From sequence record NC_100372.1: 64,000 nucleotides of DNA. One strand, written 5' to 3'. Each line of letters begins with the position of its first letter. Position 1 is the first letter of the stretch. The DNA comes from a phage. The notes under the pieces are model-generated. The model ran no database searches, was not told where the DNA came from, and was given only the letters and a program-made list of their open reading frames with translations. This document shows positions 13,383-32,667 of this stretch, piece after piece. A program made the translations under genes and the position numbers.

Positions 13383-15719
13383 TTACCAAAGATCTGTTGA
13401 CATAAAGTTAATATCTTTGTTGTTCTCCCACTCAAGTTTTGCATCAATTATTTTGTTAAACTCGCCCTCATTTATTGAAATAGTGATTTTCCCATCACTG
13501 ATCTCTAAAGGTAGCATTTCCATAGTTCTTAATTGAGAAGCAAAACCAGGGCCACCTGGCAACGGAAGAGTACCGCCAGGTAAGGTGTCCAAAGGATCAA
13601 CAAACCCGTTACCTCCGGATATAATATCTTTGCGAATCATATCGCTGATAGTATCCAGTTGCTGATTTCTTTCACTCAGCGGGTTGAAACGGTCATTAAA
13701 TAACTCTCCGGCACTTAATATTGTGCCGATAATGCCCAGCTTGCCAAGTATGCCAACTTTACCACCAGGTGTCTTGAGGCCACCTCCACCTTTTCCTGCT
13801 GCGCCTCCACCACCAGATCCTTCTGCAGTGGCTGCACCTGCTGCTCCAGCTGCACCTCTTAGAGAACTAAGGAATTTAAAGGTTTTTACAAGCATGGATG
13901 CCATGACAAAACCTTTTGTCAGGGCGTTGACGACCAGCATGATGGCAGCAGCAAACCCTGCCCATTTAGCATAGCTAAAGGTGTCATGAAGCTCTTCAGA
14001 ATATTCCTTCGTCTTAGCTGTTATGAATCCCCATTTAATCCCCCATTCAAGGAAAAACATGCGGATCTTGACTATAGTGTTGTTCAGTTCACCAACTACC
14101 CAGTTAAGACCTCTCACAAACCCGCTAACAAAATCACCAGAGGCATCCCACACAAATTGCAAAGTCTCACCAGTGCGGATCAGTGTATAATAGAACTCTG
14201 TTAGTTCGTCAGCCCAACGGGTGAACAGTTTCTGACGGGACAGTTCGATGAAGGTTTTCAGTCTGTTTTCTGCCAGCACGTTAGACTTCTGCATTCTCTC
14301 ATAACCAGCTGCAGATGCCTCGTTCATGTACTTAGCCACATACTTCATGATCTTGGCTGTTTTAACCTCACCTTTCTTCATCATGTCCATGAACTGATCC
14401 ATGGAGAGTTCAGAAAGACCAAAAGCCTCTTTGGTGGCCTTGATGAAAGGTTCATATGCCCCAGGTAACGCCTCAGCAAGCTGTTGCTTAAGTTCTTCTG
14501 ACATTACCTGTCCTTTACCAAGCATTTGCTGGATTGCCATAATACCGCGCTGGTATTTTACCTCATCAGCACCATAAGCAGCAGCATATTGAGAGTATGC
14601 AGAGAATAGCTCATGTACCTCTTGGTTTGTCATCTGATTTTTGGCGTTCACCGCCATCTGAGAATAACCCTGAAGACCAGATTTGAGATCAAAACCAAGA
14701 CGCATAGCCTCCTGCTGGACAAACGCAACTTCACTGTTGGCTTTGTTTGGATCTCCAGTAACAGCAGTAAGAGCAGCACTTGCCCCCTCCATCATGTGAC
14801 CGGATCTGTTCACCGCAGCAAATCCAGAAAAAGCTGTATACGCAGCTGTTGCATTAATAACAGATCTACGTAAGTCTCTCAAGGCATCGCCTAGTGTAAG
14901 CGTTTGGCTGGTGGCGCTTTTAAACCCAGACTGCAGAGCTGACAGGTGGGCGTTAAAGGTTGACTTTTTCATCTCTCCGCGAGCAAACCTGGACTCTAAC
15001 TCGGAGTATCCTGGCAAGCTTCCACGGAATCCGGCTCCATACTTGGCAGAAAGTCTTATCGCAGAGTTGTATAGGTGGGTTCTCCTTGCCTCACGATCCG
15101 ACATAAGCCTATTATCCATACCAGCTTTACTGTCCCTTCTTAGCTGCCTATGGTAACGGTTCATAGCCGCTGTCTGAGCTTTCACAAGATTAGGGTCGGA
15201 AGCCACACCACCCATGTTAGGGTTACCGGGGATATATTTGAAAGATTTGGCATTAGCCAAAACTCTTGCCTTAGGTGCCTTATACCCGCCGTAAGACACT
15301 GGTGCAGATTTGGCAGCCTTTTTGGCCTCTTTAGCTTGCTGCTGGTAGAACTTACGCATCCTTGCCATTTCTGGATTTTTAGCAGTAAGATTACCTACAG
15401 CTTGTTTACGTCTCGCGTTCTCCCTACGTTCTATTGCAGCCCTTACTGCAGCCTCTTTCTTGGCTTGTGCTACGCTCTCCCTGTGCAGTTTAGCATTTGC
15501 CTGAGATTGCTGCCTGGCAACCCGCTGCATTGTTTGCTGGGTTTTAACAGCCACTGCCTGCCATCTACTCATTGGGTTGGCTGAGTTAAAATCCTCGCCC
15601 AGTTTCCTGAACTCCCTCCCAATACTGCGAATTTTCTCTACAGCTTTTTTGTAGGAGGAGTTCTCTATCTCAAAGCCAATCTTGTTGACTGTTGTGGCAA
15701 CTATTTTGTTTGTAGCCAT
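13383..15719 (-). CDS. tail tape measure protein
   Basis: 778 aa, Ala/Gln/Lys-rich helical sequence with internal Gly-rich tract (AAGAAGAATAEGSGGGGAAGKGGGGLKTPGG); follows putative tail chaperone genes. Confidence 0.7.
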   Translation of the reverse strand: MATNKIVATTVNKIGFEIENSSYKKAVEKIRSIGREFRKLGEDFNSANPMSRWQAVAVKTQQTMQRVARQQSQANAKLHRESVAQAKKEAAVRAAIERRENARRKQAVGNLTAKNPEMARMRKFYQQQAKEAKKAAKSAPVSYGGYKAPKARVLANAKSFKYIPGNPNMGGVASDPNLVKAQTAAMNRYHRQLRRDSKAGMDNRLMSDREARRTHLYNSAIRLSAKYGAGFRGSLPGYSELESRFARGEMKKSTFNAHLSALQSGFKSATSQTLTLGDALRDLRRSVINATAAYTAFSGFAAVNRSGHMMEGASAALTAVTGDPNKANSEVAFVQQEAMRLGFDLKSGLQGYSQMAVNAKNQMTNQEVHELFSAYSQYAAAYGADEVKYQRGIMAIQQMLGKGQVMSEELKQQLAEALPGAYEPFIKATKEAFGLSELSMDQFMDMMKKGEVKTAKIMKYVAKYMNEASAAGYERMQKSNVLAENRLKTFIELSRQKLFTRWADELTEFYYTLIRTGETLQFVWDASGDFVSGFVRGLNWVVGELNNTIVKIRMFFLEWGIKWGFITAKTKEYSEELHDTFSYAKWAGFAAAIMLVVNALTKGFVMASMLVKTFKFLSSLRGAAGAAGAATAEGSGGGGAAGKGGGGLKTPGGKVGILGKLGIIGTILSAGELFNDRFNPLSERNQQLDTISDMIRKDIISGGNGFVDPLDTLPGGTLPLPGGPGFASQLRTMEMLPLEISDGKITISINEGEFNKIIDAKLEWENNKDINFMSTDLW

Positions 15720-15773
15720 GCTTTCCTCATAATAAAAAGGGCCAGATCCCAGAAAAGGAATCCGGCCCTTAGA

Positions 15774-16022
15774 TTATCCTCTCCTGCGCTTAGCTTTCGC
15801 AGCAGCTGCGGCAGCCTTCTGCTCCCGCTCCATTTCCCTGTTTTGGACGGTATCTAGGAATTCTTCGATATCAAGATACTCACAGAGTTTCAGGAAATAC
15901 GCCATATCTGCAAGATTTAGCGATTCAAAATTTTCCCCTTTGAAATTCTTGAGCACCCTGCACCAAAGAAAGTCGAACCAGTTAAGTGAACTGTTCTTGG
16001 CTGCCCACTCACTGGCCCTCAC
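15774..16022 (-). CDS. hypothetical small protein (possible tail assembly chaperone partner)
   Basis: 82-aa ORF between the chaperone candidate and the tape measure gene. Confidence 0.3.
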   Translation of the reverse strand: MRASEWAAKNSSLNWFDFLWCRVLKNFKGENFESLNLADMAYFLKLCEYLDIEEFLDTVQNREMEREQKAAAAAAKAKRRRG

Positions 16023-16033
16023 AACAACCTTGC

Positions 16034-16507
16034 TTATTCCTGCTCTTCCGGAGCCTGATCCAGATTGTTCACCTGCTGGATCATACCCATCTGCTGTAAC
16101 ATCTCCAGAAGGCTTCCTAAACCGTCTTGTGTGAAAAAACAGCCGTAGTTAACCTCCAGAACCTTACCTGCCAGCTTAATCATCTCCAGCAGATGCCCTG
16201 CAAACACAACATCAGGGTTAAGCTTATCCACACCATCCACGGTAATATCTTCGAACAAGATCTTAAATAACTCTTCAATAGAGTTATCATCAAGTTCTTG
16301 AAACAGGTAAGCCAGGGCTGTAGGAAGGACCTCTGCCATATTCTGACCACCTGAGAGAATAGATCCGCCGACAGCTCCTAGCGGGACAGCTACAATCTTA
16401 CCGATTTTAGGCATGTTTTTCATTGCTTTCATCGGTCCCCAGTGGGTGATCACAAAGTTGTGCCCTGCTAAATCAATCTCTGTTGTAGGTCTAAAGTTTA
16501 TAGCCAT
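16034..16507 (-). CDS. putative tail assembly chaperone
   Basis: 157-aa acidic protein located between tube-like and tape measure genes; RBS AAGGATG upstream of ATG at 16507. Confidence 0.35.
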   Translation of the reverse strand: MAINFRPTTEIDLAGHNFVITHWGPMKAMKNMPKIGKIVAVPLGAVGGSILSGGQNMAEVLPTALAYLFQELDDNSIEELFKILFEDITVDGVDKLNPDVVFAGHLLEMIKLAGKVLEVNYGCFFTQDGLGSLLEMLQQMGMIQQVNNLDQAPEEQE

Positions 16508-16550
16508 TTTATAGCATCCTTATTAGTCATGTTGTGCACCATATTTGTGT

Positions 16551-16579
16551 ATTTTACCATGATTATGGTGCATTGTCAA
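16551..16579 (-). promoter_or_regulatory. sigma70-like promoter (TTGACA-N17-TAAAAT) flanked by a 9-bp inverted repeat
   Basis: Minus strand TTGACA (16579-16574), 17-nt spacer, TAAAAT (16556-16551); inverted repeat TGCACCATA / TATGGTGCA at 16535-16543 and 16564-16572 brackets the -10. Confidence 0.45.
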
Positions 16580-16630
16580 TTTAACCTTTCAAGCAATCCA
16601 AAAGAGTTTGTCAAAACCATAAAAGCAAAA

Positions 16631-16653
16631 AGCCCCACCCGAAGGTGAGGCTT
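16631..16653 (-). terminator. rho-independent terminator after tube-like gene
   Basis: Minus strand AAGCCTCACC-TTCG-GGTGGGGCTT followed by TTTTGCTTTT, downstream of the stop at 16670. Confidence 0.5.
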
Positions 16654-16669
16654 ATACTAAAGTGTGCCC

Positions 16670-17143
16670 TTAGATAATACCTGCAAGACCTGCGAGGCCA
16701 GTGAGAGCACCAGTGATGTTGTCACGGTTGAGCCATGCATCCAGAATACCGATATCCCAGTCCAGCTGACCTACTTCGGTTCCGTAAGTGAGGTCAGGCT
16801 GTTTTTGGATCCAACCGATTGTAGCAATACCAGGACCCTGGCTACCTTCCAGTAGAACCGGGAAGAATACCAGACCAGTAATAGATGCCTGTTTCTGCCA
16901 GTCAGAAAGGTAAGCGTTCCATACAGAAGTGTTCTGCAAAGACACAGTCATAACACCAGATTGGTTACGAGACAGGGCTGCAGACATTTCGCCATCCACA
17001 CCAACATGAGGGTAGATGTTGTCTTCGTTTCTTGAAACAACAATCTTGGTGTCAGCAGCGAAGCCAGTGACACGCTGCTGCATCAGATACAGTTTGACCT
17101 TTTTAGGGTCATAAGCATAAGGAGTTAAAATTTGAGTTTCCAT
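16670..17143 (-). CDS. putative tail tube protein
   Basis: 157 aa; directly follows the sheath-like gene and is followed by terminator, chaperone candidates and tape measure. Confidence 0.4.
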   Translation of the reverse strand: METQILTPYAYDPKKVKLYLMQQRVTGFAADTKIVVSRNEDNIYPHVGVDGEMSAALSRNQSGVMTVSLQNTSVWNAYLSDWQKQASITGLVFFPVLLEGSQGPGIATIGWIQKQPDLTYGTEVGQLDWDIGILDAWLNRDNITGALTGLAGLAGII

Positions 17144-17153
17144 CTAGTCTTCC

Positions 17154-18530
17154 TTATTCAGTCATTGCAACAGCATTGGTGGATTTAGAACCAACCTTGT
17201 CCAGAAGGACGTTGATCCGGATACGAACGAAGTGCAGGGCGTTGTTATACACCAGTTCTACTTTCACACCTTCCAGAACACGAGCAGCCAACTGATTGGT
17301 TGGGATCTCTGCACGTTTAGGAACTGTGATGATCGGGTCGTAGAACACATTGTTGTCTTCGTCAAAACCTGTCAGGATCGCGCCATTCTTAATGCCAGTA
17401 TTGATCGGGTTGTTCATCAGAACAGACTTGATAACCGGAAGATCATCATCAGACATCTTCATGCTTAAACCCATATTGGAGCGACGATGCATGTACCCAA
17501 ACATGGATTCTTCAGATCTGAACTTGATCCAGTGTGCAAAACGAATAGCGTCTGCATACTGACCTGAAGCACACTTACCTTCCCAGAAAGCGCCAACACC
17601 GTTAATCATTCTGTAGAAGTTAACGTGGTTTTCCCAAATCGCCATACGTTGAGTTAAAGTCAGAGATGGTGCAATCACACCTGGCATCTGTTTTAAGTGC
17701 AAGCTGTCACCGTAGGACGGATCGTTGGATGCCATAGCACCTATGATACCACCCTCCGGGAAGTCCTTATCTGCACGAGGATCGTACATGCCAACACTGT
17801 CATATTGTGCAGCTTTCAGTTTGGTAGCGATGTTGCTATCTTTGCCAGTCACATCTTCTGCAGTAGAGTAGACGTGCAGCTTGTAGTTGGCCTGAGCCCA
17901 CTTAGCACATGCTTCAATGTCGGTGTGGTCTTCATGGCACAGGAAGTACCAATTGTCCCGCTCAGCATTGATCTTATCAACTACTGTAGAAGGTTTTTCA
18001 GAATTGGCGATATTCTTGATTGTATAGTTACCAGTATGATAACCAACAGTGCAGTCACCAGTGATGGTGATAACACCTTCAGAAGCCTCTACAGTGATAT
18101 CGTTCAAGTTATCATCTGCTTCGATTTTAGTCTTCATTGATTCTGCAATCTGAGTTGCAGCTGTCCCACCAGAGATAGGAACTATCAAAGAGGTATTGTA
18201 GCCACCTTTTGCAATAGTCATTACGACATCAGTATCAGCTGCGGCAGCAATACCTTTAAAATCTACAGTGGTTTTTTCTTTGGCCTGTCTGCCGATCATA
18301 ACATATTGTGGAGGGAATACACCACCAAAAGCTTTTGCTGCAAACTCATACGCTGCAGAGCCTTGTGCGAAACCATCTTCCACCATCTGATCCAGCTCCG
18401 CATATACGCGAGCTCGCTCAGTGAAGTTGTTGTGGATAGCGATGAACAGGGGAGTTTCGAAACCTACAGTGTCAATAGGTTGGGTTCCGAGGTTAACTGT
18501 AACATCTACCACTTTATCTAAATATGGCAT
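17154..18530 (-). CDS. major tail protein, sheath-like (tentative)
   Basis: 458 aa; N-terminal VDVTVNLGTQPIDTVGFETPLFIAI resembles the sheath N-terminal pattern as recalled; sheath-tube-chaperone-tape measure order. Confidence 0.4.
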   Translation of the reverse strand: MPYLDKVVDVTVNLGTQPIDTVGFETPLFIAIHNNFTERARVYAELDQMVEDGFAQGSAAYEFAAKAFGGVFPPQYVMIGRQAKEKTTVDFKGIAAAADTDVVMTIAKGGYNTSLIVPISGGTAATQIAESMKTKIEADDNLNDITVEASEGVITITGDCTVGYHTGNYTIKNIANSEKPSTVVDKINAERDNWYFLCHEDHTDIEACAKWAQANYKLHVYSTAEDVTGKDSNIATKLKAAQYDSVGMYDPRADKDFPEGGIIGAMASNDPSYGDSLHLKQMPGVIAPSLTLTQRMAIWENHVNFYRMINGVGAFWEGKCASGQYADAIRFAHWIKFRSEESMFGYMHRRSNMGLSMKMSDDDLPVIKSVLMNNPINTGIKNGAILTGFDEDNNVFYDPIITVPKRAEIPTNQLAARVLEGVKVELVYNNALHFVRIRINVLLDKVGSKSTNAVAMTE

Positions 18531-18602
18531 TTGTTTCCTCTTAATATCTGTGCACGGATATCAAACACGCAGTGTAATCATTACACTACACAATTATAAC
18601 GA

Positions 18603-19154
18603 TTACTGACCACTGTCTGTAACCGCTTTACCAGAATTGGGTGAAGGGAAGTGTGTGGTTATTTCAGCCTTAATTCCCTGAAGATCCTCAAAAGCCCCAA
18701 TGTCTGTCTCAACAAACCTTACGTTAAATGTCAGCATTACTGTGGCTCTATTTTCATACGTCTGCTTATTCAACGGCACCCTTTGAGGTGAAATTGTTGA
18801 ATTGTTAGAGTAGGCAAAGCACGATCCCAGAGGGAAATACTTGTCATAAAACATTGGAAGGTTTATTGCTTGCAATACTCTGCTAAGTGCAGCATATGCC
18901 CTGCCGCGATAAGCTGTTAACAGATAAGTAACAGTGTAGCTGTGGGTGACGTAAGCATTACCCTCCGCATCTTGAAACTCATTATCTTCCCAAGTGGTGG
19001 GATTGATCGCCAGGGTTTGCAAAAGTACAAACTCACCTTCCGGCTTCGGTATGGTAGAGCTTTCTGCCAGAACTACAGTTCTTCCTGTGGCAACCTTGAC
19101 AAGCTTAGCGATGGTTGTTTCAAGATCAGAAAAAACTTTTTCGAAAGCTTCCAT
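18603..19154 (-). CDS. hypothetical structural protein (head-tail joining region)
   Basis: 183-aa ORF between head genes and sheath-like gene. Confidence 0.3.
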   Translation of the reverse strand: MEAFEKVFSDLETTIAKLVKVATGRTVVLAESSTIPKPEGEFVLLQTLAINPTTWEDNEFQDAEGNAYVTHSYTVTYLLTAYRGRAYAALSRVLQAINLPMFYDKYFPLGSCFAYSNNSTISPQRVPLNKQTYENRATVMLTFNVRFVETDIGAFEDLQGIKAEITTHFPSPNSGKAVTDSGQ

Positions 19155-19579
19155 CAGTTTTCTCCTTCAGGCTCTTCTACCACAAAAAATCTATATCTTC
19201 CACCACCAGACGTGACATAAGAATCGCATTTTAAAACGGTAAACCACTTCAGGTCACCACGGATGTCAGGCAGTTGAATTTGATCAGCCATTGCATATGT
19301 TCCTTCGTCTGGACTATACAACTTGGTTGAGGAGTAAACTGTAAAAGCCTCGTACTGTCTGTCACCCTCAGGATTTATCTGGGAGGAGTAATCTTTAGCT
19401 GCTCTTCCTGTCAACGGCTGCACAACACACTCTAAGACATCAAACTCTTCATACTCAAGTTCTAACCCCTCGTTAGCAAAAGGACTGCCAACTGTTTTGT
19501 TATATACTCTGTGGCGACCTTTGAATGTTTTACGAGGTATTAGCCTGTTCTTTCCTATCAGCTTATAACCTGCTGCCAC
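19154..19579 (-). CDS. hypothetical structural protein
   Basis: 141-aa ORF; stop overlaps the downstream start. Confidence 0.3.
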   Translation of the reverse strand: MAAGYKLIGKNRLIPRKTFKGRHRVYNKTVGSPFANEGLELEYEEFDVLECVVQPLTGRAAKDYSSQINPEGDRQYEAFTVYSSTKLYSPDEGTYAMADQIQLPDIRGDLKWFTVLKCDSYVTSGGGRYRFFVVEEPEGEN

Positions 19580-19598
19580 TCAACCACCCCCTTATTTT

Positions 19599-20069
19599 TT
19601 ACTGTCCAATTTTAAAGGTTGCAGATTCAAGCAGCACATCGTAATGCCGCATAGCCTCGTTGAAGCCCTTCTCTTGTGCCCACTGCTCACTAACAGTAGG
19701 GTTACTAAACTGACCAGCCTCAATAACAAACTGGATAGCTTTGGCCCCTGTGTCCCCCATCTGTCTAAGAACAGCCTCTGCACTTGATCCTCTAGCCATA
19801 GCTCTCAACAATTTTTCTGTCAAGGTCTGTAGTTGCGTGCTGTGAAATGCAAAGGCCGTCTCCATGAAATTGCGAACAGGCAGCCCGTTCCAACCGAAGT
19901 TGTGAATAGCTGCCAATGTTGCCATATTTAAGCCTGACGGGTGAGGTTCATCATAAAAGCCGTAGGTTATTGTTTTGCTTTCAAGTTTCACAAGGTCTTT
20001 ATAAAAGCGATCTAAACGCTTTAGGTTGAACCTTGTTTGACATTTAACCTTTAGCATTATATTCCTCAC
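19599..20069 (-). CDS. hypothetical structural protein
   Basis: 156-aa ORF in the head-tail connector region. Confidence 0.3.
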   Translation of the reverse strand: MRNIMLKVKCQTRFNLKRLDRFYKDLVKLESKTITYGFYDEPHPSGLNMATLAAIHNFGWNGLPVRNFMETAFAFHSTQLQTLTEKLLRAMARGSSAEAVLRQMGDTGAKAIQFVIEAGQFSNPTVSEQWAQEKGFNEAMRHYDVLLESATFKIGQ

Positions 20070-20110
20070 TAATGTATTTTACCACAAAGATACATCAAAA
20101 GCAACAATTT

Positions 20111-20788
20111 TTAAAAACTGCGTTTGCGTCTTGGGTGGCGAGGAGGTTGATTATTTAGACCACTAATAGGTGTAATCCCCTGAACATCGAACGGGCCGTT
20201 ACTGTTTTCATTAAATTTAACCCGAATTCCTTCGTCTACACGAACACCACCAATGATAATCATTCTGCTATAAGCATCTAGCTCAGAGTCTACATAATCT
20301 GGGTGTGCCAGCAGCCAATCAAGAAAATCTTTCCACTGAGCGTAGGAAGATCCACCACGAATCTCTATGGTCTCATCACCTATTTTTTCCAGACGAGAAG
20401 TTATACTTGCATTACCGCTGGAAACTTCCTGCATCATCAGCCACCGCACAAGCTGCACAAGCACATTGTACTTAAGCAGGGGTAGCTTATCAGGGTCTGC
20501 CGGATAATTTAGTTTCAGCTTCTCCATGTCAAGGAATGTTTTAATTACCTCATCAGGGAGTGTTTCCTCGTCAACATTGCCAAGCAATAACCTCATAATA
20601 TCAATAAGAGGTTGGTCTGGATCAGGTTCCGGAGGCACAGGATCTTCTTTTGGTGGTTCTTCTGGGGTATCGACTACACCATCATGGTTAGGCGGTGACG
20701 GGATAATCTCTTCATCTTCATACCATGCCATTTGAAAATACCTCGTAAAAATAAAGCCCCATTCCTGATTTGGAAGGGGCCTTAACAA
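20111..20788 (-). CDS. hypothetical structural protein
   Basis: 225-aa ORF, acidic/Pro-rich N-terminal half. Confidence 0.3.
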   Translation of the reverse strand: MLRPLPNQEWGFIFTRYFQMAWYEDEEIIPSPPNHDGVVDTPEEPPKEDPVPPEPDPDQPLIDIMRLLLGNVDEETLPDEVIKTFLDMEKLKLNYPADPDKLPLLKYNVLVQLVRWLMMQEVSSGNASITSRLEKIGDETIEIRGGSSYAQWKDFLDWLLAHPDYVDSELDAYSRMIIIGGVRVDEGIRVKFNENSNGPFDVQGITPISGLNNQPPRHPRRKRSF

Positions 20789-20790
20789 AA

Positions 20791-21645
20791 TTATGCCAGT
20801 GCAGCCTCAAAATCTTTCATCATATTTTGGAAAGTTTTTGCCTTACTTAAGGTGACACCGTGCTCTTTAGCGAAGGTTTGGAGTGCATCTTTCGAACCAC
20901 TTTTGTCATCTTCGTTGTTAAGAGCTGAGGCTTGCTGTAGTATGGCATCAATATCATTACCGGAAGATCTTGATTCTTGTGCCTGTTCAGGATCCTGCTC
21001 AGTGCCTTCCGTACCATCCGGTGCGGTAGGGCCTGGTGATTCCTCACTGCCACCACCAGGCTCAGTAGGGCCTACAGGTGGCTCAGGCTCTGGTTCAGGT
21101 TCTGGGGCTACTGTAGAAGTCAGCCCAAGATTTACAACCTGAGAACGTTTCTTAGGCCACTCAATGGTGAAAGTCTGGGTATCTTCTGCATAAGCAACAT
21201 CGCATTGCTCATCGTTTATGGTCACTTTTTTGGGCATCCCTTCAGGGTCCCACAGATGACCTTCTGCTACGGAAACCTTGAAAGCAGCATCTACCTCTTT
21301 AAACACTGACGGGGTGAGTGTGATATTGACATCACCGCTTTGCAGTGTTAAAGTGCTTTCATCAAGGTTTTCTGTGAAGAACAGAAGAATAACACCCATA
21401 CGGATAGTTGAAATACCAGTATCAATTGGCAGACCTGTGTGTTTTGCAATCTTCTCGAAGAAGTCTACAATCGTTCTGCATGGATAGTGAACACTGCCAA
21501 TAACGAACTCTGTTGGTGGCAGCAGGGCTGATAAACCAACATTGATTTCTGGATTGTATTGTGCTAAAAATTGATAAAAACTTAACTGATTGTTGAAAAC
21601 TCTTAATAGAGGATCATACTCGACTGGATATACGGCTCTCTTCAC
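20791..21645 (-). CDS. hypothetical structural protein with PEPEPEP linker
   Basis: 284-aa ORF following the major-capsid terminator; contains PEPEPEPEPP Pro/Glu linker and Gly/Ser/Thr-rich tract. Confidence 0.3.
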   Translation of the reverse strand: MKRAVYPVEYDPLLRVFNNQLSFYQFLAQYNPEINVGLSALLPPTEFVIGSVHYPCRTIVDFFEKIAKHTGLPIDTGISTIRMGVILLFFTENLDESTLTLQSGDVNITLTPSVFKEVDAAFKVSVAEGHLWDPEGMPKKVTINDEQCDVAYAEDTQTFTIEWPKKRSQVVNLGLTSTVAPEPEPEPEPPVGPTEPGGGSEESPGPTAPDGTEGTEQDPEQAQESRSSGNDIDAILQQASALNNEDDKSGSKDALQTFAKEHGVTLSKAKTFQNMMKDFEAALA

Positions 21646-24655: not shown

Positions 24656-26212
24656 TTAATTTTCCATGTTGGATATGGAATTATCTCTGGTTGATGACAT
24701 CTTAGAAGTGCCGTTGCCAGTGGATCCTGCAGCCATTCCATCACCAGCCCTACTGATATCCTGGCCCAAGAGCTTCATTAGCTCTTCCTGATCCATGTCC
24801 TCGTCAAATCTTTCATCAAACCCACCTACTTCAAGAATCTTATTAATTACTGCAGGAGTTTTTGGCAAGTAACCTACAGCACCGATCCTCTGGACAAACT
24901 TGGAGAAGCTCTCCATGTCCACCTCTTCAATCAGACCAGGTTTCAGTTTAGGCATATCATCATCTTCAAGGATGATACCATTCAATGCCAGAAGCTGTGG
25001 AATAAGATCTTTATTGAAGGCCTCAGTGATAATATCTATATCACGCTGAACAAAATGACCATGGATAGACTGTTTTGACTCAGACAGAGAGAAGGATCCG
25101 ACGTTATCGTTACCGAGGTTAATAAAGCCAGCACCGAAACGGTCAAGAATCGCCTTCTTACGGGCATCAATCAAATCTTTAGTGGAATACTGCTTGCCCA
25201 TACCGTCAACCCCCTTCAGGGTCATGGAGTAAAGCTCTTTACCAGACTTATCTCTATCAGACGGAAGTATAAAGAAACTTTGCTCCCCACTATGGGCGTT
25301 TGCTGCGTCAAGCATAAGATCTGCAACCATTCTCCCTTCCATTGAATTCGGGTCAATACTGGCCTTGTTCAAAATATTGGAAGGAATTTTCAGCTCAAGC
25401 ACACCACCAAGGTCTTTGGAACAGCCAACAACCTCAAGGTTTTCAATCAAAACTTTCTCACGGAAAGATCTGTAGCAACCTATCATCGGTGACACACCTG
25501 CAGGGTTAGATTCTGTTCCTGACAGAGTCATGAGCATAAGCTTTTTAGCAGGGATGAAAATTTCAGGCTCATTAAAGCCTTTTGAAGGCATTGCAGCGAG
25601 AGGACCAGCCCAGCGTGCATTCTGCGTGTTTAGAAATGCATTAGGTGATTGATAAATACCTGTCAGTGTTCTACTATTCTTGTCAAAGACAAACGGCTCT
25701 GATCTGGACAAACTGGCCTGTGGTCGGAACGCAATCTTATCAATGAGAAGCATCCCGGCGTATTTGCCTTCTTTCTCTCTGCGGTATACTTTCTCAAACA
25801 GTGAAAAACCATACTCGTTAAAGGTAGCTGCGCTTCTTGCAATATCTCGAAGAGTTTGTTGGTTTGCCAAATTACGCAAAGAATACTCTATAAGCTCGGC
25901 GGCTTTCTTAGAGTCTTCACTTTTAACATTATAAAGGATCTTAAAATCATTGAATGCTTTCGTGATGAAAACATATTTTGTATCTAAGGCAGTAGCAACT
26001 GTGGAATCACATTTCATAGTCTCCACTGTGGCAATCAGCTGAGGCCAACGCAATTCCTCAACCATCATAGATTGTGATTCTGCCATAATTTGGGAAAGTG
26101 CGCCAGAACCGATCTCACTCATACGAACATTATGAGTTGGTGCGCCTGCGTTCCCAGATTTATTCACAGTTTTGGCTGTGGCGTTGTGTTTCCTGCGGTT
26201 CTTTTTGGACAC
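24656..26212 (-). CDS. putative portal protein
   Basis: 518-aa ORF immediately downstream of large terminase; size and position typical of portal. Confidence 0.55.
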   Translation of the reverse strand: MSKKNRRKHNATAKTVNKSGNAGAPTHNVRMSEIGSGALSQIMAESQSMMVEELRWPQLIATVETMKCDSTVATALDTKYVFITKAFNDFKILYNVKSEDSKKAAELIEYSLRNLANQQTLRDIARSAATFNEYGFSLFEKVYRREKEGKYAGMLLIDKIAFRPQASLSRSEPFVFDKNSRTLTGIYQSPNAFLNTQNARWAGPLAAMPSKGFNEPEIFIPAKKLMLMTLSGTESNPAGVSPMIGCYRSFREKVLIENLEVVGCSKDLGGVLELKIPSNILNKASIDPNSMEGRMVADLMLDAANAHSGEQSFFILPSDRDKSGKELYSMTLKGVDGMGKQYSTKDLIDARKKAILDRFGAGFINLGNDNVGSFSLSESKQSIHGHFVQRDIDIITEAFNKDLIPQLLALNGIILEDDDMPKLKPGLIEEVDMESFSKFVQRIGAVGYLPKTPAVINKILEVGGFDERFDEDMDQEELMKLLGQDISRAGDGMAAGSTGNGTSKMSSTRDNSISNMEN

Positions 26213-26242
26213 AAGCTTTACCCCTCAAAACAGTATAACAAA

Positions 26243-26264
26243 ATAGCCCTCGTGTCAGAGGGCT
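26243..26264 (-). terminator. hairpin (terminator-like) between terminase and portal genes
   Basis: Minus strand AGCCCTC-TGACAC-GAGGGCT followed by ATTTTGTT. Confidence 0.3.
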
Positions 26265-26314
26265 AGTATCTCCGATTACTCTATTCTACCACATCTAATT
26301 AAGATTGGCAACAC

Positions 26315-27862
26315 TTAGATAAAACGCTTGAACATAGAAGGTGATGAGATTGATGGAATCACACAAGGCAGCGCTACCTCCTCTTTCTCCAGGAAATTAA
26401 TCGCAGAAGCTACACAGTCGGCCCAGTCGTCTTTTCTGTTAAATGTTGATCTTTCCCCGTTGAACTTTTCAAGTTCAGTCAGAAATGCTTCCAGAGTGTC
26501 AGGATGGAAACTGGATTTTACAATCCTCACCATTCCTTGTTGGGCAAGATTGGCAAAAGGTGAGAACCTTGTCAGTTTAGATTTGTTGGAAGGCATTGGA
26601 TCTTCTTCAACCCTGAACCCTTCGGCGAGCAAAGATCTGGACGAGGTTAAGAACTCACTCTTACCTGCCTGACCGGGGTCTACAGAAAATACGATTATGC
26701 AATCATCTCCATCAAACTGCGCCTGTTTCCTGATGATCACATCTCGTTCCCCAGCCTTTTTACAGAACTTTCCTTCCAGACCTGTGGAATACCTACCGTC
26801 ATCCACGTTCTCAGGACAATAATCCCCGGACAGGTAATAAAAGCCGTCGCTATCTTTACTTACCTTAACACTGGCAGTAAAGTCAGGAAATTTATTACCG
26901 GAAGTTCTCTCGGTTCCTGCCTTATCCCATGCCCTGCAAGATACTGATCCAAGAGGTACTCTATCGGCATCCCGAAGGAAAGATCTTTGGAAATAGTTTG
27001 CACCCTCAGGTTTGGCAAACCAGTTGCCATGAAGAAGCTGGGCTTTTTCAAGCTCGGGTAGACCTTCAAGGAAAGCAAGGTATTCCGGGTTGTCTCTCAA
27101 ACAGACAGGATTATCGAAAATTGTTGCGCCTATAAACGAGAATGACAACGGTCTTGGCTTGATCTCCACACCCAGTCCGTTAACCGTGGTGTATTTCTCT
27201 ATTAACTCTTCTTTAGAGTCTCCCCAAATAAATTCACCGTCGCGTCGGATAAAATATCTTTTCTTACCACATTTCTCCGGATCTGGATACCCTTCATCGT
27301 CCAACCACCACCTAACCAGTTTGGCAAGCATGTGTTCTGAGTCGGGGTTACAGCTGATAACCATTCTTGATGGATACTTTGACTGAGATCGCAGACGAGA
27401 CATCAAATAGTCTATCTGCTCCCATTCGAATTGCGTGCCTTCATCGAAGCAAACCATGGTGTACTCAAGGCCTTGATGGTTAAGCTTATCTTGGACATAC
27501 TCCATGTGGCAGTATTTTACAACGGCCCCTTTTTTGCTCCTGTCCCACTTGCCAGTGCTCGGATCAAACCGTGGAAAAATAAACTTATGATCCTTCTCTC
27601 TGAACTTTGGTTTAATGTTTTCAGGCAGATCACTGTAGATAGCTACTGCTTTAGGCCATAGCCCACCCTCACCTTCCAACTGGGGAGTTGTTCTTCGGAA
27701 CATAACCACAGAGCTGTGCGGGTCATCAATAATTTTAAGCGGCATTAGCTGCAAGAGGAACGACTTGCCAGACCCAGCTGCACCTCCGATCACCAAAATA
27801 TCTGCATCGTTCTCTAGGATCATCTTCTGCTTTTCAGAACACGGTCCGTAAATCTTAGACAT
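26315..27862 (-). CDS. terL: terminase large subunit
   Basis: 515 aa; Walker A VIGGAAGSGKSFLL near N-terminus; C-terminal nuclease-like region; precedes portal. Confidence 0.85.
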   Translation of the reverse strand: MSKIYGPCSEKQKMILENDADILVIGGAAGSGKSFLLQLMPLKIIDDPHSSVVMFRRTTPQLEGEGGLWPKAVAIYSDLPENIKPKFREKDHKFIFPRFDPSTGKWDRSKKGAVVKYCHMEYVQDKLNHQGLEYTMVCFDEGTQFEWEQIDYLMSRLRSQSKYPSRMVISCNPDSEHMLAKLVRWWLDDEGYPDPEKCGKKRYFIRRDGEFIWGDSKEELIEKYTTVNGLGVEIKPRPLSFSFIGATIFDNPVCLRDNPEYLAFLEGLPELEKAQLLHGNWFAKPEGANYFQRSFLRDADRVPLGSVSCRAWDKAGTERTSGNKFPDFTASVKVSKDSDGFYYLSGDYCPENVDDGRYSTGLEGKFCKKAGERDVIIRKQAQFDGDDCIIVFSVDPGQAGKSEFLTSSRSLLAEGFRVEEDPMPSNKSKLTRFSPFANLAQQGMVRIVKSSFHPDTLEAFLTELEKFNGERSTFNRKDDWADCVASAINFLEKEEVALPCVIPSISSPSMFKRFI

Positions 27863-28965: not shown

Positions 28966-29042
28966 TGGTCTCCACGGAGTGATTCGAACACTCGACCTCC
29001 TGATCCCAAATCAGGCGCTCTACCAAGCTGAGCTACGCGGAG
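28966..29042 (-). tRNA. tRNA-Pro (anticodon TGG), CCA encoded
   Basis: Manual fold: acceptor CTCCGCG/CGTGGAG (one G-T), D arm GCTC/GAGC, anticodon stem CCTGA/TCAGG with loop TTTGGGA, T arm GAGTG-TTCGAAT-CACTC, 3' ACCA. Confidence 0.75.
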
Positions 29043-29053
29043 TATTTATTATT

Positions 29054-29128
29054 TGGTGGCCCTGGGTGGAATTGAACCACCGTCTGGCGATTATGAGTCG
29101 CTTGCTTGAACCTTCCAGCTACAGGGCC
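29054..29128 (-). tRNA. tRNA-Met (anticodon CAT; initiator, elongator or Ile2-type undetermined), CCA encoded
   Basis: Manual fold: acceptor GGCCCTG/CAGGGCC, anticodon loop CTCATAA, T loop TTCAATT, 3' ACCA. Confidence 0.7.
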
Positions 29129-29129
29129 A

Positions 29130-29205
29130 TGGTGCTGATGGCAGGACTTGAACCTGCAACCTATTGATTACAAATCAATTGCACTGCCAATTGTGCTACA
29201 TCAGC
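29130..29205 (-). tRNA. tRNA-Thr (anticodon TGT), CCA encoded
   Basis: Manual fold: acceptor GCTGATG/CATCAGC, anticodon stem ATTGA/TCAAT with loop TTTGTAA, T arm GCAGG-TTCAAGT-CCTGC; 1 nt after tRNA-Met. Confidence 0.75.
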
Positions 29206-29211
29206 AAAAGG

Positions 29212-29308
29212 TGCTAGGTGATGGAATCGAACCACCTATGTATTCAACGACTACCTCGTCTATTTTCAGGATTAAAAATCCTCGCCCTTGCCAAAGGGCT
29301 TACCTAGC
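29212..29308 (-). ncRNA. atypical 97-nt tRNA-like element (possible Lys-UUU-type anticodon loop; not a canonical fold)
   Basis: Perfect 7-bp acceptor GCTAGGT/ACCTAGC, D arm GCCC-TTTGGCAA-GGGC, T arm GGTGG-TTCGATT-CCATC, but the central region is two short hairpins (AGGATTTTTAATCCT and GACGAGGTAGTCGTT), about 31 nt between anticodon-like hairpin and T stem; A at position 8; 3' end ACCT not CCA. Confidence 0.4.
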
Positions 29309-29406
29309 GCAATATGTTGACCATGTGGCTAGTCGGCGATGACGACTGTAACATTTGATAATCCGGTTCTGCTTCCGGCTTTCGCTTAATTACAAGGTCA
29401 ACAATG

Positions 29407-29497
29407 TGGCGGAGAGTAATGGAATCGAACCATCATCGAGTCATCCTCAACGGGACGGTTTTCAAGACCGCTTGAGCACCATTGCTCCCTACCCTCC
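29407..29497 (-). tRNA. tRNA-Ser (anticodon TGA), type II with long variable arm, CCA encoded
   Basis: Manual fold: acceptor GGAGGGT/ACTCTCC (one G-T), anticodon stem GCGGT/ACCGT with loop CTTGAAA, variable arm about 17 nt, T arm GATGG-TTCGATT-CCATT, 3' GCCA. Confidence 0.7.
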
Positions 29498-29611
29498 TTT
29501 ATAAATTACACTGATAATGACACTGATTTTCGAGCAGTTAGTGACTAGTATAAACGACGATAAATATCAATGTCATTATCTGTATGATTTATGCATTTAA
29601 AAATATAAATT

Positions 29612-29698
29612 TGGTGGGGAGTGGTGGAGTCGAACCACCCGAGTCGCAATGACAATAGATTTACAGTCTACACCGCTACCTCTACGGGATAACTCCCC
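29612..29698 (-). tRNA. tRNA-Tyr (anticodon GTA), long variable arm, CCA encoded
   Basis: Manual fold: acceptor GGGGAGT/ACTCCCC, anticodon stem GTAGA/TCTAT with loop CTGTAAA, T arm GGTGG-TTCGACT-CCACC, 3' ACCA. Confidence 0.7.
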
Positions 29699-29702
29699 AA
29701 TT

Positions 29703-29777
29703 TGGCACCCCGTACTGGACTCGAACCAGTGTCAACGGCTTAGAAGGCCGCTGCTTTATCCACTAAGCTAACAGGGC
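29703..29777 (-). tRNA. tRNA-Arg (anticodon TCT), CCA encoded
   Basis: Manual fold: acceptor GCCCTGT/ACGGGGT (two G-T), D arm GCTT/AAGC, anticodon stem GCGGC/GCCGT with loop CTTCTAA, T arm ACTGG-TTCGAGT-CCAGT, 3' GCCA. Confidence 0.7.
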
Positions 29778-29835
29778 ACTGGGTGGCTTTCTTTTACACC
29801 TGAGCCGCCAGAAAAGGTGGGAGACCATGTTTATA

Positions 29836-29864
29836 ATATTACACTGTTAGGCAAAGTTTGTCAA
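29836..29864 (-). promoter_or_regulatory. consensus sigma70-type promoter for the tRNA operon
   Basis: Minus strand TTGACA (29864-29859), 17-nt spacer, TAATAT (29841-29836); about 60 nt upstream of tRNA-Arg 5' end. Confidence 0.6.
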
Positions 29865-29873
29865 GAAAATATT

Positions 29874-30212
29874 TTAACTATTGCCAACAGGCTGTATTTC
29901 TGTGGTAAATGGCATAAAAGGTGCTGGTTTTTCAGCCTCTTCTACTACCACCTCTTCCTCTTCACCAAACATCTCATCATATTCTTCCTGCATTCGGTCT
30001 GCCTTATCAAGAACATACTCTGCAATGCTTTGACGAATATTTTGTTTGGTTTTCGGGTCCAACATCAGCTCTCTTAAAACTTTGTGAGCTTCTGGAACCA
30101 TCGCTATAAAAGATTCCTTCATATCAAGAATGTTCTTCTCTAGCTGAATGGCGTTGGACTCCTCTTTCAGAGGTCTGCCTCTACGGCGACGCTTTTTAGT
30201 TGTATCCGCCAT
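29874..30212 (-). CDS. small basic protein with AT-hook-like motif
   Basis: Start set at internal ATG 30212 with RBS GGAGGA (ORF track start at 30332 lacks RBS); N-terminus MADTTKKRRRRGRPLKEE has GRP AT-hook core; acidic C-terminus. Confidence 0.4.
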   Translation of the reverse strand: MADTTKKRRRRGRPLKEESNAIQLEKNILDMKESFIAMVPEAHKVLRELMLDPKTKQNIRQSIAEYVLDKADRMQEEYDEMFGEEEEVVVEEAEKPAPFMPFTTEIQPVGNS

Positions 30213-30557
30213 GTTTCCTCCATTATCACGTGATAGGTGGATTTTATCACGGCAAATACTGATTGTCAAGTTCGCCGCAGGGTGGTATTCCCTGCGACTT
30301 GCCCAGCGTCCTGGACCAGCAAGACCCAACAAGTGGGTTACCAGATACCCATTACCGCGCTCTGGCTCGACCTTATTACAGGTTGGCTGGGGTCACATCG
30401 TCATGTGCTGGCTGCCCCTACCATTTTAAGTGTGGTGCACTATCAAGCCCTCTAAGGGGAACTCAGCCTTCTCCGAACCCTGTTTCAAAGCATCCGGAGA
30501 TAAAGCCATCAAACTCATCTTTAAATTGGATATTCATCATGATACACGAAAACAACC

Positions 30558-30800
30558 TCATTGTAAAGCACAAATAAATAAAACATACTTAATTTGTTTG
30601 TTATCGGGCTCAGGGTAGAAGTAGAAGATCTTGCTATCACCAATCTGAACACCACCATCCCAACAACATAAACCATAACCAGTATTCATACAAGCTAAGT
30701 CGTTGGCAAAATCTATTGCATCATCTAGTGCACGAAATTCACCTTCATCTTCTAAATAATCCTCATTCATGGAACGGAAAACGAGCTTAACCTTAAACAT
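30558..30800 (-). CDS. hypothetical protein
   Basis: 80-aa ORF on the minus strand. Confidence 0.3.
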   Translation of the reverse strand: MFKVKLVFRSMNEDYLEDEGEFRALDDAIDFANDLACMNTGYGLCCWDGGVQIGDSKIFYFYPEPDNKQIKYVLFICALQ

Positions 30801-30876
30801 AGCATTACCTGTAGACCTCGTAAGTTAAAATTGTATCACATCATATTGCAGATCTTATCAGGTAACATTATTTTTG

Positions 30877-31086
30877 TCAACAGATTCCGGCCTTATCCTT
30901 CCTGTCTGCGTATTCTTTAATCGCAACCTCACCTGCATTGGTGACTAGATCTTCAAAGTAATTCTCAAGCTCCTCGTCAATGTCCGGTGACCAGCTCTTT
31001 TTCCTGTCGGTGTGAATTGCAGACTTGTTGAACTTATTACAGTTCTTTGCTACCGGATTGTTCATTAAGCTCTCCTCAACGTTCAT
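30877..31086 (-). CDS. hypothetical protein
   Basis: 69-aa ORF; stop overlaps the start region of the upstream 192-aa gene. Confidence 0.25.
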   Translation of the reverse strand: MNVEESLMNNPVAKNCNKFNKSAIHTDRKKSWSPDIDEELENYFEDLVTNAGEVAIKEYADRKDKAGIC

Positions 31087-31654
31087 AGTAAATCTTATTC
31101 AACATTACCTCATCGTTTGCAGAAAGGATATCAAGATATGCATCACCAAATCTGCCTGCAACAACCTCTGCATGATACATCACTTCGTTAACATCGTCAA
31201 GAGTGATAACCGGATGACCATATCTTTCTGAATATTGTCTCAGGGTGCGATGTAACGAGTCGTCATCATATGCAGACTTTTTAATATCACAAACACGACG
31301 AATAGCCTTGATGTCGAAAAAACCTGTGCGATACCACCCAAGAAAAAAGTTCCGTGTAGTGTCAACATCTACATCAATACCATTAAGAACCTTATCTACA
31401 AGATAGCTGTCATCCTTTGGACTAGTGTCCTTAGTGCGAATGTAGTTGCCATCTTTTCCAGGTGATAGCTCCTTCTCATCACCAACCTGCATGCCATCAT
31501 TTGGCGGTGTTAGCCACTTATCAGGATGCTTACGATCACGAGCGTTAGAATGATTACGCTGGAAACCTGGCTTCCACTTGAAAGTTTTCTCCATCTGTTC
31601 TTCATTCTGATAACGTTTTGCAATCTTTTCACTGGCATCTTTGCGTGAACTCAT
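31076..31654 (-). CDS. hypothetical protein
   Basis: 192-aa ORF with RBS-like GAGGAG upstream of ATG at 31654; preceded on the minus strand by about 660 bp of ORF-free sequence. Confidence 0.4.
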   Translation of the reverse strand: MSSRKDASEKIAKRYQNEEQMEKTFKWKPGFQRNHSNARDRKHPDKWLTPPNDGMQVGDEKELSPGKDGNYIRTKDTSPKDDSYLVDKVLNGIDVDVDTTRNFFLGWYRTGFFDIKAIRRVCDIKKSAYDDDSLHRTLRQYSERYGHPVITLDDVNEVMYHAEVVAGRFGDAYLDILSANDEVMLNKIYYER

Positions 31655-32160
31655 AGCAGACTCCTCTTCAAGTTATAGAAAAAACTCACTGTATCGCTTT
31701 GTAACGAGCTTTTCTATCAAACTGGTGCGATTGCCTTACTTGGTATAGTTTATATAGCTGTGGAGCGATTTAGGGGCCTTCTTGTCAGTTTCCACACATA
31801 AACTTTATCCGAACTCGCGCGGGAGGCTCTCAACCGACTCCTTCCGGCGCTGGCAAGCTTTCGTCGGTGGTCCACATTAGTGCTCGGCCTTTGGCCTGTG
31901 CTATCGCTTCGCTCCCACACATGTTAACAGTCCTGCATGTATGCACTTCTGTTATTGTGTGCACTATGGAGGCCCGGCATCTCGCCCCTCGTAGGCGAGT
32001 GCCAATGAAGGGCCGACACTACCCATAATAAGTAATAAATTTAAAACATGGTACTTAGGATCTAGTATATTCTACATAAGTTAAGTATATGTACTTTAGT
32101 ACCATAAGTACTAGATCTTTTATTTTTTATTATTTAGTTATTTTAGTTATATTCTTTATG

Positions 32161-32243
32161 TGTCCGTATCACGGACAGTTAGTGTCCGTATTACGGGCAA
32201 ATGTGTCCGCGTGACGGACAGTAGTGTCCGTATCACGGACAGT
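32161..32243. repeat. array of four phased palindromic sites (consensus GTGTCCGTATCACGGACAG)
   Basis: Copies start at 32161, 32183, 32204, 32225 (21-22 bp phasing); copies 1 and 4 identical, 2 and 3 degenerate; each has 7-bp inverted arms TGTCCGT / ACGGACA. Confidence 0.65.
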
Positions 32244-32316
32244 TACTAACCTCTGTTCCATAGTGAACATAAAACATACAAATCCTTATAGTACAGATGT
32301 TTAAGTTTTTACTGGT

Positions 32317-32667
32317 CTAACCAGTTGTTGACATTCGAATAACTTCTTCTGGTGGCAAAACTTTGGAAAATGTGCATCTTTTACCTCTCCCTTGTGTGGA
32401 TATTTCAACCACTCCTGCACATTCTAAAGTTTTAACGCACGCTGCTGCTTTTGTTTTCTTTATCCCAACATCTGCTGCAATTTTCCTTGTGCTGGGTGTG
32501 AAGCGTAAATTTTCTCCAAGCTTATACCAGTTGTGCAGGTAGCAGTATACGATCTTGTCATATAAGTCAAGAACAACAACCTCCCCAGTTGTGTCATTCA
32601 AAACTTTTGACATAGACAGTATTTCAAGGGGGACTTTAAGATATAGCAGCTTATCCCCATCTTTCAT
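32317..32667 (-). CDS. putative DNA-binding protein (helix-turn-helix / winged-helix-like)
   Basis: 116 aa; segment STRKIAADVGIKKTKAAACVKTLECAGVVEISTQGRGKRCTF resembles an HTH recognition helix plus wing; the palindromic array lies just 3' of this gene. Confidence 0.35.
   Translation of the reverse strand: MKDGDKLLYLKVPLEILSMSKVLNDTTGEVVVLDLYDKIVYCYLHNWYKLGENLRFTPSTRKIAADVGIKKTKAAACVKTLECAGVVEISTQGRGKRCTFSKVLPPEEVIRMSTTG

Follow-up and report, generated by a model that had tools for sequence, protein, structure and literature searches.

The noncoding gap at positions 31655-32316 of the 64,000-nucleotide stretch analyzed here (the window), which comes from the genome record NC_100372.1 of an rV5-like E. 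coli phage (genus Vequintavirus), has the anatomy of an iteron-type replication origin. We assign a probability of roughly 45% to the reading that this gap is an origin module joined to a conserved island of single-strand hairpins, an arrangement that would be generic to the phage lineage and its plasmid relatives. From left to right, the gap contains a conserved flank, a GC-rich island of hairpins, an AT-rich block, four tandem dyad repeats, and a short spacer that borders the gene of a 116-amino-acid (aa) winged-helix protein. An original prediction, made from the DNA letters alone, had described the gap as free of open reading frames (ORFs) of 60 aa or more, and this is correct, as the longest overlapping ORF is 56 aa. 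The same prediction proposed either an origin composed of an unwinding element plus iterons or stable small RNAs of the kind found in the tRNA region of T4. The first proposal fits the anatomy that we observe, but it named the wrong repeats: the more convincing sites, at 32160-32245, lie outside the interval that it described, whose end coordinate, 32160, is the exact start of the strongest repeat in the region.

The four dyad repeats (GTGTCCGTATCACGGACAG, with the core TGTCCGT-NNN-ACGGACA) are each 21-22 bp long, with start-to-start spacings of 22, 21, and 21 bp. Four matches to the motif are found against 0.02 expected in the window, and none occurs elsewhere in the 64 kb. We propose that these repeats are iterons or operator sites. 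Adjoining them is the AT-rich block (32026-32159; 18.7% GC), which we propose as an unwinding element. Its unusual composition had been noted in the original prediction, and it is indeed the lowest-GC 134-bp stretch of the window, with the next lowest at 26.9%. The block contains GTAC, GATC, and AGATCT palindromes, and the short palindromes listed earlier (GTACTTTAGTAC, AGTACT, and AGATCT) can be read in the sequence. The direct repeats listed with them (TAGTTATTTTAGTTAT) are also present, but they form a weak 9-bp array (Tandem Repeats Finder [TRF] score, 38) and are not the convincing iteron-like sites.

Several smaller observations concern the repeats. Phage JES2013 (L025) and a human-gut metagenome contig (L033) have three dyad repeats instead of four. 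By coordinate arithmetic, the record MG065672.1 (Campylobacter phage A141, 140,869 bp) starts at window position 32244-32245, the outer edge of the fourth repeat; this start point is unique among the records and may be coincidental or may result from the assembly having broken at the repeats. We also considered T7-type primase sites as a signal, as GTGTC opens each repeat and the plus strand of the gap holds six such sites versus 1.2 expected. Four of the six are the dyad repeats themselves, and the sites are retained only as a lead.

To compare constraint across the gap, we used the mean pairwise difference among 13 rV5-like phages. Third codon positions in the flanking genes differ by 0.078-0.109, and the spacer (32246-32316), to which we assign no function, has a similar value of 0.104. 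The values are 0.047 for the left flank (31655-31760), 0.044 for the island (31761-32025), 0.017 for the AT block, and 0.0125 for the repeats. Thus, the repeats and the AT block are constrained like second codon positions, the island is constrained moderately, and the spacer is free.

The gene at the right edge of the gap (32317-32667, minus strand) encodes the 116-aa protein, which is annotated as "transcriptional regulator / replication initiation protein." The protein matches the Pfam families DUF6945 (E 1.5e-6) and HTH_36 (E 1.6e-4), as well as PHROG 12838, "replication initiation protein," with weaker matches to two longer initiator PHROGs. Residues 22-112 are homologous to a 128-aa plasmid protein (E 2e-7) and align with the N-terminal ~120 aa of a 298-aa HTH_36 Rep-like protein encoded by plasmid L043 (E 3e-5). 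Weak Pfam matches to repressor-type winged helices, including the DNA-binding domains of LexA, TrmB, and CodY, were also obtained. The family is very narrow, with too few members for a useful alignment, and its only solved relative is the uncharacterised protein 4ro3. A single-sequence AlphaFold model of the protein was unusable (pLDDT 42), and a protein-anchored search of IMG/VR with it found nothing.

A divergent 137-kb vequintavirus contig (L017) shows how the parts of the gap can be separated. The contig keeps the 192-aa gene that lies left of the gap, the left flank (84% identical to 31655-31760), and the island at 83-84% identity, and is unrelated beyond position 32020. In place of the 116-aa gene is that of a 143-aa homologue (27% identity, E 5e-7), which is adjoined by four to five other dyad repeats (ATCTGATRCA..TGYATCAGAT), and the contig's own T-rich block (23-27% GC) adjoins the same island. 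Because the protein, the repeats, and the AT-rich block are all different, we conclude that they were exchanged as one unit. Such joint exchange is what would be predicted of a cognate protein-site pair, with the island as the constant partner.

The island extends from about 31760 to 32022. As the original prediction stated, it is GC rich (0.52-0.59 in 100-bp windows over ~31750-32000, compared to ~0.40 in the flanks) and contains the hairpins CTCGCC..GGCGAG and GGCC-TTT-GGCC. We find that it is a mosaic of short hairpins, often with CCCACACA between them. Its plus strand folds with a z score of -3.47 relative to dinucleotide shuffles (0 of 200 as good) and its minus strand with a z score of -2.47 (3 of 200 as good). 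The left part of the island (31761-31816) includes the boundary motif GCGATTTAGGGGCC (GCCATTTAGGGG in the plasmids). Next is module A (31817-31870), in which a stem formed by 31831-31838 and 31863-31870 encloses a 24-nt loop (31839-31862). The only variation in the loop is a C/A polymorphism at 31844, and the loop is complementary to the conserved upstream GCGCGGGAG (31817-31826), which creates a pseudoknot-like layout. A connecting segment (31871-31915), containing the GGCC-TTT-GGCC hairpin and GTGCTATCGC..CGCTCCCACACA, is common to a set of plasmids that we call A2 type. It is followed by a hairpin identified by folding, CACACA..AACAG..TGCA-TGTA-TGCA..CTGTT..TGTGTG (31916-31961), within which rV5-type phages, including rV5, have an 18-bp deletion at 31941-31958. 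The last element, module B (31971-32014), is a long GC hairpin, GGCCC-GGCA-CTCGCC / GGCGAG-TGCC-GGGCC, found in all of the phages and in plasmids L003, L044, and L045.

The comparative alignment, which had been suggested as a check for compensatory base changes, revealed such changes in three pairs of module A and two pairs of module B. In module A, three of the eight stem pairs are changed on both sides between phages and plasmids (CCGAC/GTCGG versus CTGCC/GGCAG); 89.9% of cells are paired, compared to 35-66% when the partner is slid, and double-sided changes are seen in 14 cells, compared to 6.3 in shuffles (0 of 500 reach 14) and zero with the partner slid. In module B, plasmid L003 has T:A in place of G:C at two stem pairs, with both partners changed. 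Many plasmids instead contain a variant, module A2, with another stem (GTCCGGAT/ATCCGGAC) and a loop, AGTCTC, that is complementary to an upstream GAGACT. By direct reading, A2 keeps the pseudoknot-like layout with different pairing sequences.

Three further sequence features of the island were pursued and set aside. We examined CCCACACA as a genome-wide "punctuation" signal, as it occurs 8 times in the window versus 2 expected, but the other copies are coding and have no common context. The remaining copies of a second motif, TTTAGRGG, also lack a common context. The CCGGAAGGAGGCAGC stretch resembles what we take to be the tetraloop region of 4.5S/signal recognition particle (SRP) RNA, and this resemblance was rejected when the Rfam SRP models did not match.

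We then considered whether the island is better explained as RNA or as DNA. Covariance-model scans with Rfam 15 covered the window at gathering score and 29700-32400 at E<=10. Only tRNAs were found in the whole window at gathering score, and the more permissive scan of 29700-32400 added to one tRNA only matches far below gathering, to rli43 (24.6 bits versus 100) and mir-5 (19.2 versus 75). Scans of the plasmid islands and of the L017 island returned nothing. Among 20 islands, mismatches at helix positions comprise 18 G.T and 21 A.C, indicating that strand bias is absent, and 34 of the 61 distinct hairpins in these islands have 3-4-nt loops. The lack of strand bias and the short loops lead us to conclude that inverted repeats acting at the DNA level (hairpins on either strand, or cruciforms) fit better than an RNA made from one strand. 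Consensus folding gave almost the same energy for each strand (-71.7 versus -73.4). Single helices give contradictory signals: some contain G:U pairs on the plus strand, and others contain a GNRA-compatible polymorphism and one G:U pair on the minus strand. The polymorphism in question is the C/A difference at 31844, which on the minus strand reads GGAA/GUAA inside CC-GNRA-GG.

These results provide no positive support for T4-like stable small RNAs, the second proposal of the original prediction: there is no Rfam match and no wobble strand bias, and the tRNA cluster is 1.9 kb away from the island. The region does resemble that of T4 species 1 and 2 RNAs in being a GC-rich, structured, noncoding stretch in a large virulent myovirus with a tRNA cluster. 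It differs in that the island is separated from the tRNAs by 1.9 kb and four protein genes and lacks tRNA-like features, an Rfam family, and a strand signal.

A close counterpart of the island is found in a family of small plasmids. When the whole plasmid NZ_CP020521.1 (L005; 13,689 bp) was compared to 50,697 phage records, DNA similarity was detected only at the island and only to 118 rV5-like records. Phage and plasmid islands are similar at ~85% of nucleotides, whereas the structural proteins common to phage and plasmids are only 26-50% identical. Genes on NZ_CP020521.1 specify a major head protein of the HK97 type, a Dit-like protein (50% identity to a window protein), a neck/tail-completion-like protein (44% identical), and a tape measure protein (26% identical; ~706 aa in the plasmid family), together with an HTH_36 Rep-like protein of ~300 aa and an 86-aa helix-turn-helix protein. 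No terminase or portal was recognizable among the proteins encoded by the plasmids. The members of the family (L005, L003, L004, L006, L007, L028, L031, and L038-L047) are 13-14 kb long and come from E. coli.

Database searches show the distribution of the island and of the plasmid family. Across 5,426 E. coli genomes, we found no chromosomal match to the island, and only 4 plasmids match; six plasmids with the island are present in PLSDB, and a single relative is present in IMG/VR. A 20-mer from the module A loop gave only chance matches, in GC-rich genomes, when searched against a species-representative genome collection. The plasmid capsid protein falls into 18 clusters of a large protein collection, one of which has 441 member sequences. 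Nearly all of the cluster members are on 13.2-14.3-kb E. coli contigs, and the same gene set was observed in ten further elements. A protein-anchored search of IMG/VR with the capsid protein found nothing. In our literature search, we did not find a description of these 13-14-kb elements, and according to a 2025 review, only one plasmid has been shown to be a phage satellite, its helper being an inovirus (PMC12282955). Judging from their gene content, the 13-14-kb plasmids appear to be undescribed satellites carried as plasmids, or else miniature relatives of the rV5-like phages.

Two records contain this element in a larger context. NZ_CP043822.1 (p3RM10740, 39,610 bp) has three copies of the island, two of them ~13.4 kb apart, and appears to be either the 13-kb element in trimeric form or the product of fusion among three related elements. 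In L045 (NTNY01000053.1, 30,105 bp; locus 13900-21041), the 13-kb element lies beside aminoglycoside phosphotransferase genes, a DDE transposase, and a TetR-family gene; thus, the element can be joined to resistance genes.

In the plasmids, as in the phage, the island is found beside iterons. Three of the four plasmids examined have 5-6 iterons with 23-bp spacing within ~30 bp of the right end of the island; in the fourth, L003, ~540 bp containing three 30-bp repeats lies between the island and the iterons. At least three iteron sequence types are represented in these four plasmids, and more types are visible in additional plasmids. The orientation (island, AT-rich stretch, repeats) is alike in phage and plasmids, and at least five different pairings of protein and repeats are found with the island, several of which belong to replicons that have to persist as plasmids. 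As these plasmids are autonomous, an origin must be present in this region. The plasmids also contain a conserved plus-strand promoter-like sequence, TTGTCA-16-AATTAT, to the left of the island, two plus-strand hairpin-plus-T-run (terminator-like) sites at its right end, and a strong minus-strand promoter downstream of it. Given the downstream position of this last promoter, the island is not the leader of that plasmid operon.

Based on these observations, we propose a model in which the 116-aa winged-helix protein would bind the four dyad repeats as dimers, with the two-helical-turn spacing placing the sites on one face of the DNA. The bound protein would strain the adjoining 134-bp AT block and promote its melting. 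The GC island, which lies beyond the AT block, would then function as hairpins once single stranded, on one strand or on both, and would serve as an origin-proximal signal for the replication machinery (a priming site, a helicase-loading site, or an unwinding boundary) rather than as a stand-alone small RNA. In this model, the module would consist of a generic component, the island, and an exchangeable one that determines specificity, made up of the protein, repeats, and AT block; the capsid-encoding plasmids may use the island to be served by the phage. A broader proposal, which we regard as possible but doubtful, is that the island belongs to an undescribed class of mosaic hairpin cassettes that mark the origins of rV5-like phages and of a hitherto unrecognized family of 13-14-kb E. 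coli plasmids with capsid and tape measure genes of their own, and that give these plasmids, as satellites of virulent Vequintavirus phages, a handle for helper replication or packaging.

The proposed module has partial counterparts in characterized origins. In ori-lambda, four dyad-symmetric iterons bound by the O protein lie next to an AT-rich region. The likeness is anatomical, and we claim no sequence similarity: in both cases, four internally dyad repeats spaced by about two helical turns are found beside an AT-rich stretch and an initiator-like winged-helix gene. The systems differ in that the lambda repeats are inside the O gene whereas those described here are outside the gene, the 116-aa protein has no counterpart of the C-terminal half of O that recruits the helicase loader, and the phage AT block is three times longer, is conserved in sequence, and is followed by a 260-bp hairpin island. 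A second comparison is with the oriV regions of IncQ (RSF1010) and IncP (RK2) plasmids; in the former, the ssiA and ssiB hairpins are recognized by the plasmid primase. The progression from iterons to an AT-rich and then a GC-rich segment with single-strand hairpins is similar, as is the separability of an iteron-Rep specificity part from a generic priming part. However, there is no sequence relationship, the phage has no RepB'-type primase, and the IncQ ssi hairpins are ~40 nt, compared to a mosaic island of 250-450 bp for which a priming function is our inference. Finally, ColE1 RNA II and the promoter-plus-AT-rich origins of T7 and T4 resemble the plasmid arrangement, in which a plus-strand promoter-like site and ~500 nt of structured sequence point toward the origin repeats. 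In contrast to these transcript-primed origins, terminator-like hairpins precede the plasmid iterons, and no plus-strand promoter was found in the phage gap.

Several points weigh against the assignment of the gap as an origin. The 116-aa protein is a DNA-binding domain alone, far smaller than known phage initiators and without a recognizable helicase-recruiting part, and its "replication initiation" label is an annotation based on remote similarity. An arrangement of four dyad sites two helical turns apart is just as characteristic of repressor operators. The sequence conservation of the AT block exceeds the needs of an unwinding element and therefore suggests binding by a specific protein or polymerase. 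The covariation in the island is based essentially on one split, that between phages and plasmids, and the promoter- and terminator-like sites that bracket the island suggest that it is transcribed in the plasmids. The window contains 8 DnaA boxes (TTWTNCACA), as expected by chance, and none is in 31655-32316. In addition, the authors of the rV5 genome paper could not place the origin by skew analysis (PMC3606486).

The main rival explanation, which we consider somewhat unlikely, is that the gap is a transcriptional control region. In that case, the 116-aa protein would be a repressor or activator, the dyad repeats would be its operators, and the AT block would contain a promoter for the leftward genes, possibly phage specific or with an UP element. 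The island would be a structured RNA, either a 5' leader or a separate noncoding RNA, transcribed from the minus strand in the phage and as a ~500-nt plus-strand RNA in the plasmids. Dyad operators with 21-24-bp spacing are classic for repressors, as at lambda OR/OL. The size of the protein, which is that of a small regulator, and its weak matches to the LexA, TrmB, and CodY domains are in line with this explanation, as are the sequence-level conservation of the AT block, the folding of the island relative to shuffles, the GNRA-compatible polymorphism on the minus strand, and the promoter-like site and two terminator-like sites around the plasmid islands. In the rV5 genome paper, a leftward early promoter, P081, is predicted ~1.4 kb to the right of the gap (PMC3606486). 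Because no terminator is predicted between P081 and the gap (PMC3606486 Table S4), the minus strand of the island is probably transcribed by readthrough from this promoter. On the other hand, the same paper predicts neither a promoter nor a terminator inside the gap (PMC3606486), and our scan of both strands of the AT block and the repeats detected no sigma-70-like promoter. The gene of the supposed regulator is located upstream of the repeats, the minus-strand promoter of the plasmids lies downstream of the island and does not make it an operon leader, and an RNA is disfavored by the absence of an Rfam match, the absence of wobble strand bias, and the dominance of 3-4-nt loops. A control region would also leave the adjacency of the island to iterons unexplained.

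An alternative that we consider improbable is that modules A and B form a cis-acting site for helper packaging (pac) or another phage function, such that the plasmids are packaged or amplified by the phage. This idea draws on the island being the sole DNA-level similarity of a whole plasmid to the phage records, on the contrast between its ~85% nucleotide similarity and the 26-50% identity of the structural proteins, and on the plasmids encoding capsid, Dit-like, neck-like, and tape measure proteins without a recognizable terminase or portal. It is also compatible with the headful (pac) packaging of rV5-like phages, whose packaging site is unmapped (PMC13211470, PMC8407724). A precedent for the pattern is the sharing of cos by helper P2 and satellite P4, in which the nucleotide similarity of a large phage to a small element lacking packaging genes is likewise confined to a short noncoding stretch; here, however, the shared stretch consists of covarying hairpins rather than a cohesive-end site, the plasmids have capsid and tape measure genes of their own, and the link to a helper is putative. 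The compensatory stem changes argue for a single-stranded structure, and we know of no characterized pac or cos site that requires one. The island is ~4.5 kb from the large terminase gene, and no nearby small terminase gene is known. The idea is further weakened by the many plasmids that contain A2 and lack module B, so that no sequence is common to all, and any helper relationship of these plasmids is putative. That the gap is a degenerate or frameshifted protein gene or functionless filler is highly improbable: small ORFs (31-56 aa) are annotated here in some phage records, but Phage 203 has a 1-nt deletion inside the 56-aa ORF, the plasmids have no matching frame, direct reading finds that the start codon after a Shine-Dalgarno-like AAGGAG is not conserved, the island, AT block, and repeats vary much less than third codon positions do, and the stems are maintained by two-sided changes.

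The rV5-like phages are in wide use in the biocontrol of E. coli O157 and in therapy cocktails, and to our knowledge, their origin, initiator, and packaging site have not been defined so far. The origin reading makes this gap a concrete candidate origin, with a cognate protein-site pair that is apparently exchangeable between lineages. Through the island, the virulent rV5-like phages are also connected to small E. coli plasmid assemblies, numbering in the hundreds, whose genes include those for capsid, tail-tip, and tape measure proteins but none for a recognizable terminase. If the plasmids are satellites, they would be of a new kind, plasmid-borne and parasitizing a lytic myovirus, and the common hairpin element would give a first indication of the way in which the helper is exploited.

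In the window, the gap belongs to a leftward series of genes for polynucleotide kinase, a phosphoesterase, and the 116-aa protein, followed after the gap by the 192-aa gene (31076-31654, minus strand), small genes, and tRNAs, and further along by lysis, terminase, head, and tail genes. The segment between the island and the 192-aa gene (31655-31760) is conserved and noncoding and can be partly aligned with the plasmids; in it, a 40-nt core at ~31690-31730 is nearly invariant in the aligned phages, with isolated single-base changes in three. The 192-aa gene encodes a hypothetical protein that had no match in Pfam, NCBIfam, or PDB, a result that neither supports nor excludes a small-terminase role. 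For the region 31600-32350, matches were obtained to 118 phage records (90-99.5% identity), which all belong to rV5-like myoviruses in the genus Vequintavirus, and matches of the 116-aa and 192-aa proteins outside rV5-like (Vequintavirus) records were not detectable. Mydovirus BIS47 and Justusliebigvirus EC_OE_11, which are relatives via the phosphoesterase, have another gene order and no equivalent gap. Eighteen of the 118 matching records are labeled as Campylobacter phages. In this region, these MG0656xx records, which give Campylobacter jejuni as the host, have 90-96% identity with rV5-like phages of E. coli, a similarity that suggests mislabeled or contaminating phages in that data set.

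Other features of the window lie nearer to the tRNAs, seven of which are encoded at 28966-29777 on the minus strand, with four annotated protein genes between them and the island. A second GC-rich (0.53-0.57) noncoding stretch is found between small genes at 30213-30460, with the tRNA cluster ~440 bp away. The stretch ends at a strong promoter-like sequence directed leftward, TTGACA-17-TAAAAT (30269-30241), which is P074 of the rV5 paper (PMC3606486). Its minus strand folds mildly better than shuffles (z -1.66), and it has no Rfam match. Within the cluster, a tRNA-like gene of 97-99 nt at 29210-29308 (minus strand) is assigned a four-base anticodon (atcc) by ARAGORN and only 35.5 bits by Rfam; it is annotated as tRNA-Lys in one phage record and tRNA-OTHER in another. 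An insertion or intron may be present in this gene, or its product may be a tRNA resembling frameshift suppressors. At 25304-27090 (minus strand), the closest annotated relative has the large terminase as a 1,050-bp coding sequence followed by one for "recombination endonuclease VII," which suggests either a terminase gene interrupted by an inserted endonuclease or a misannotation.

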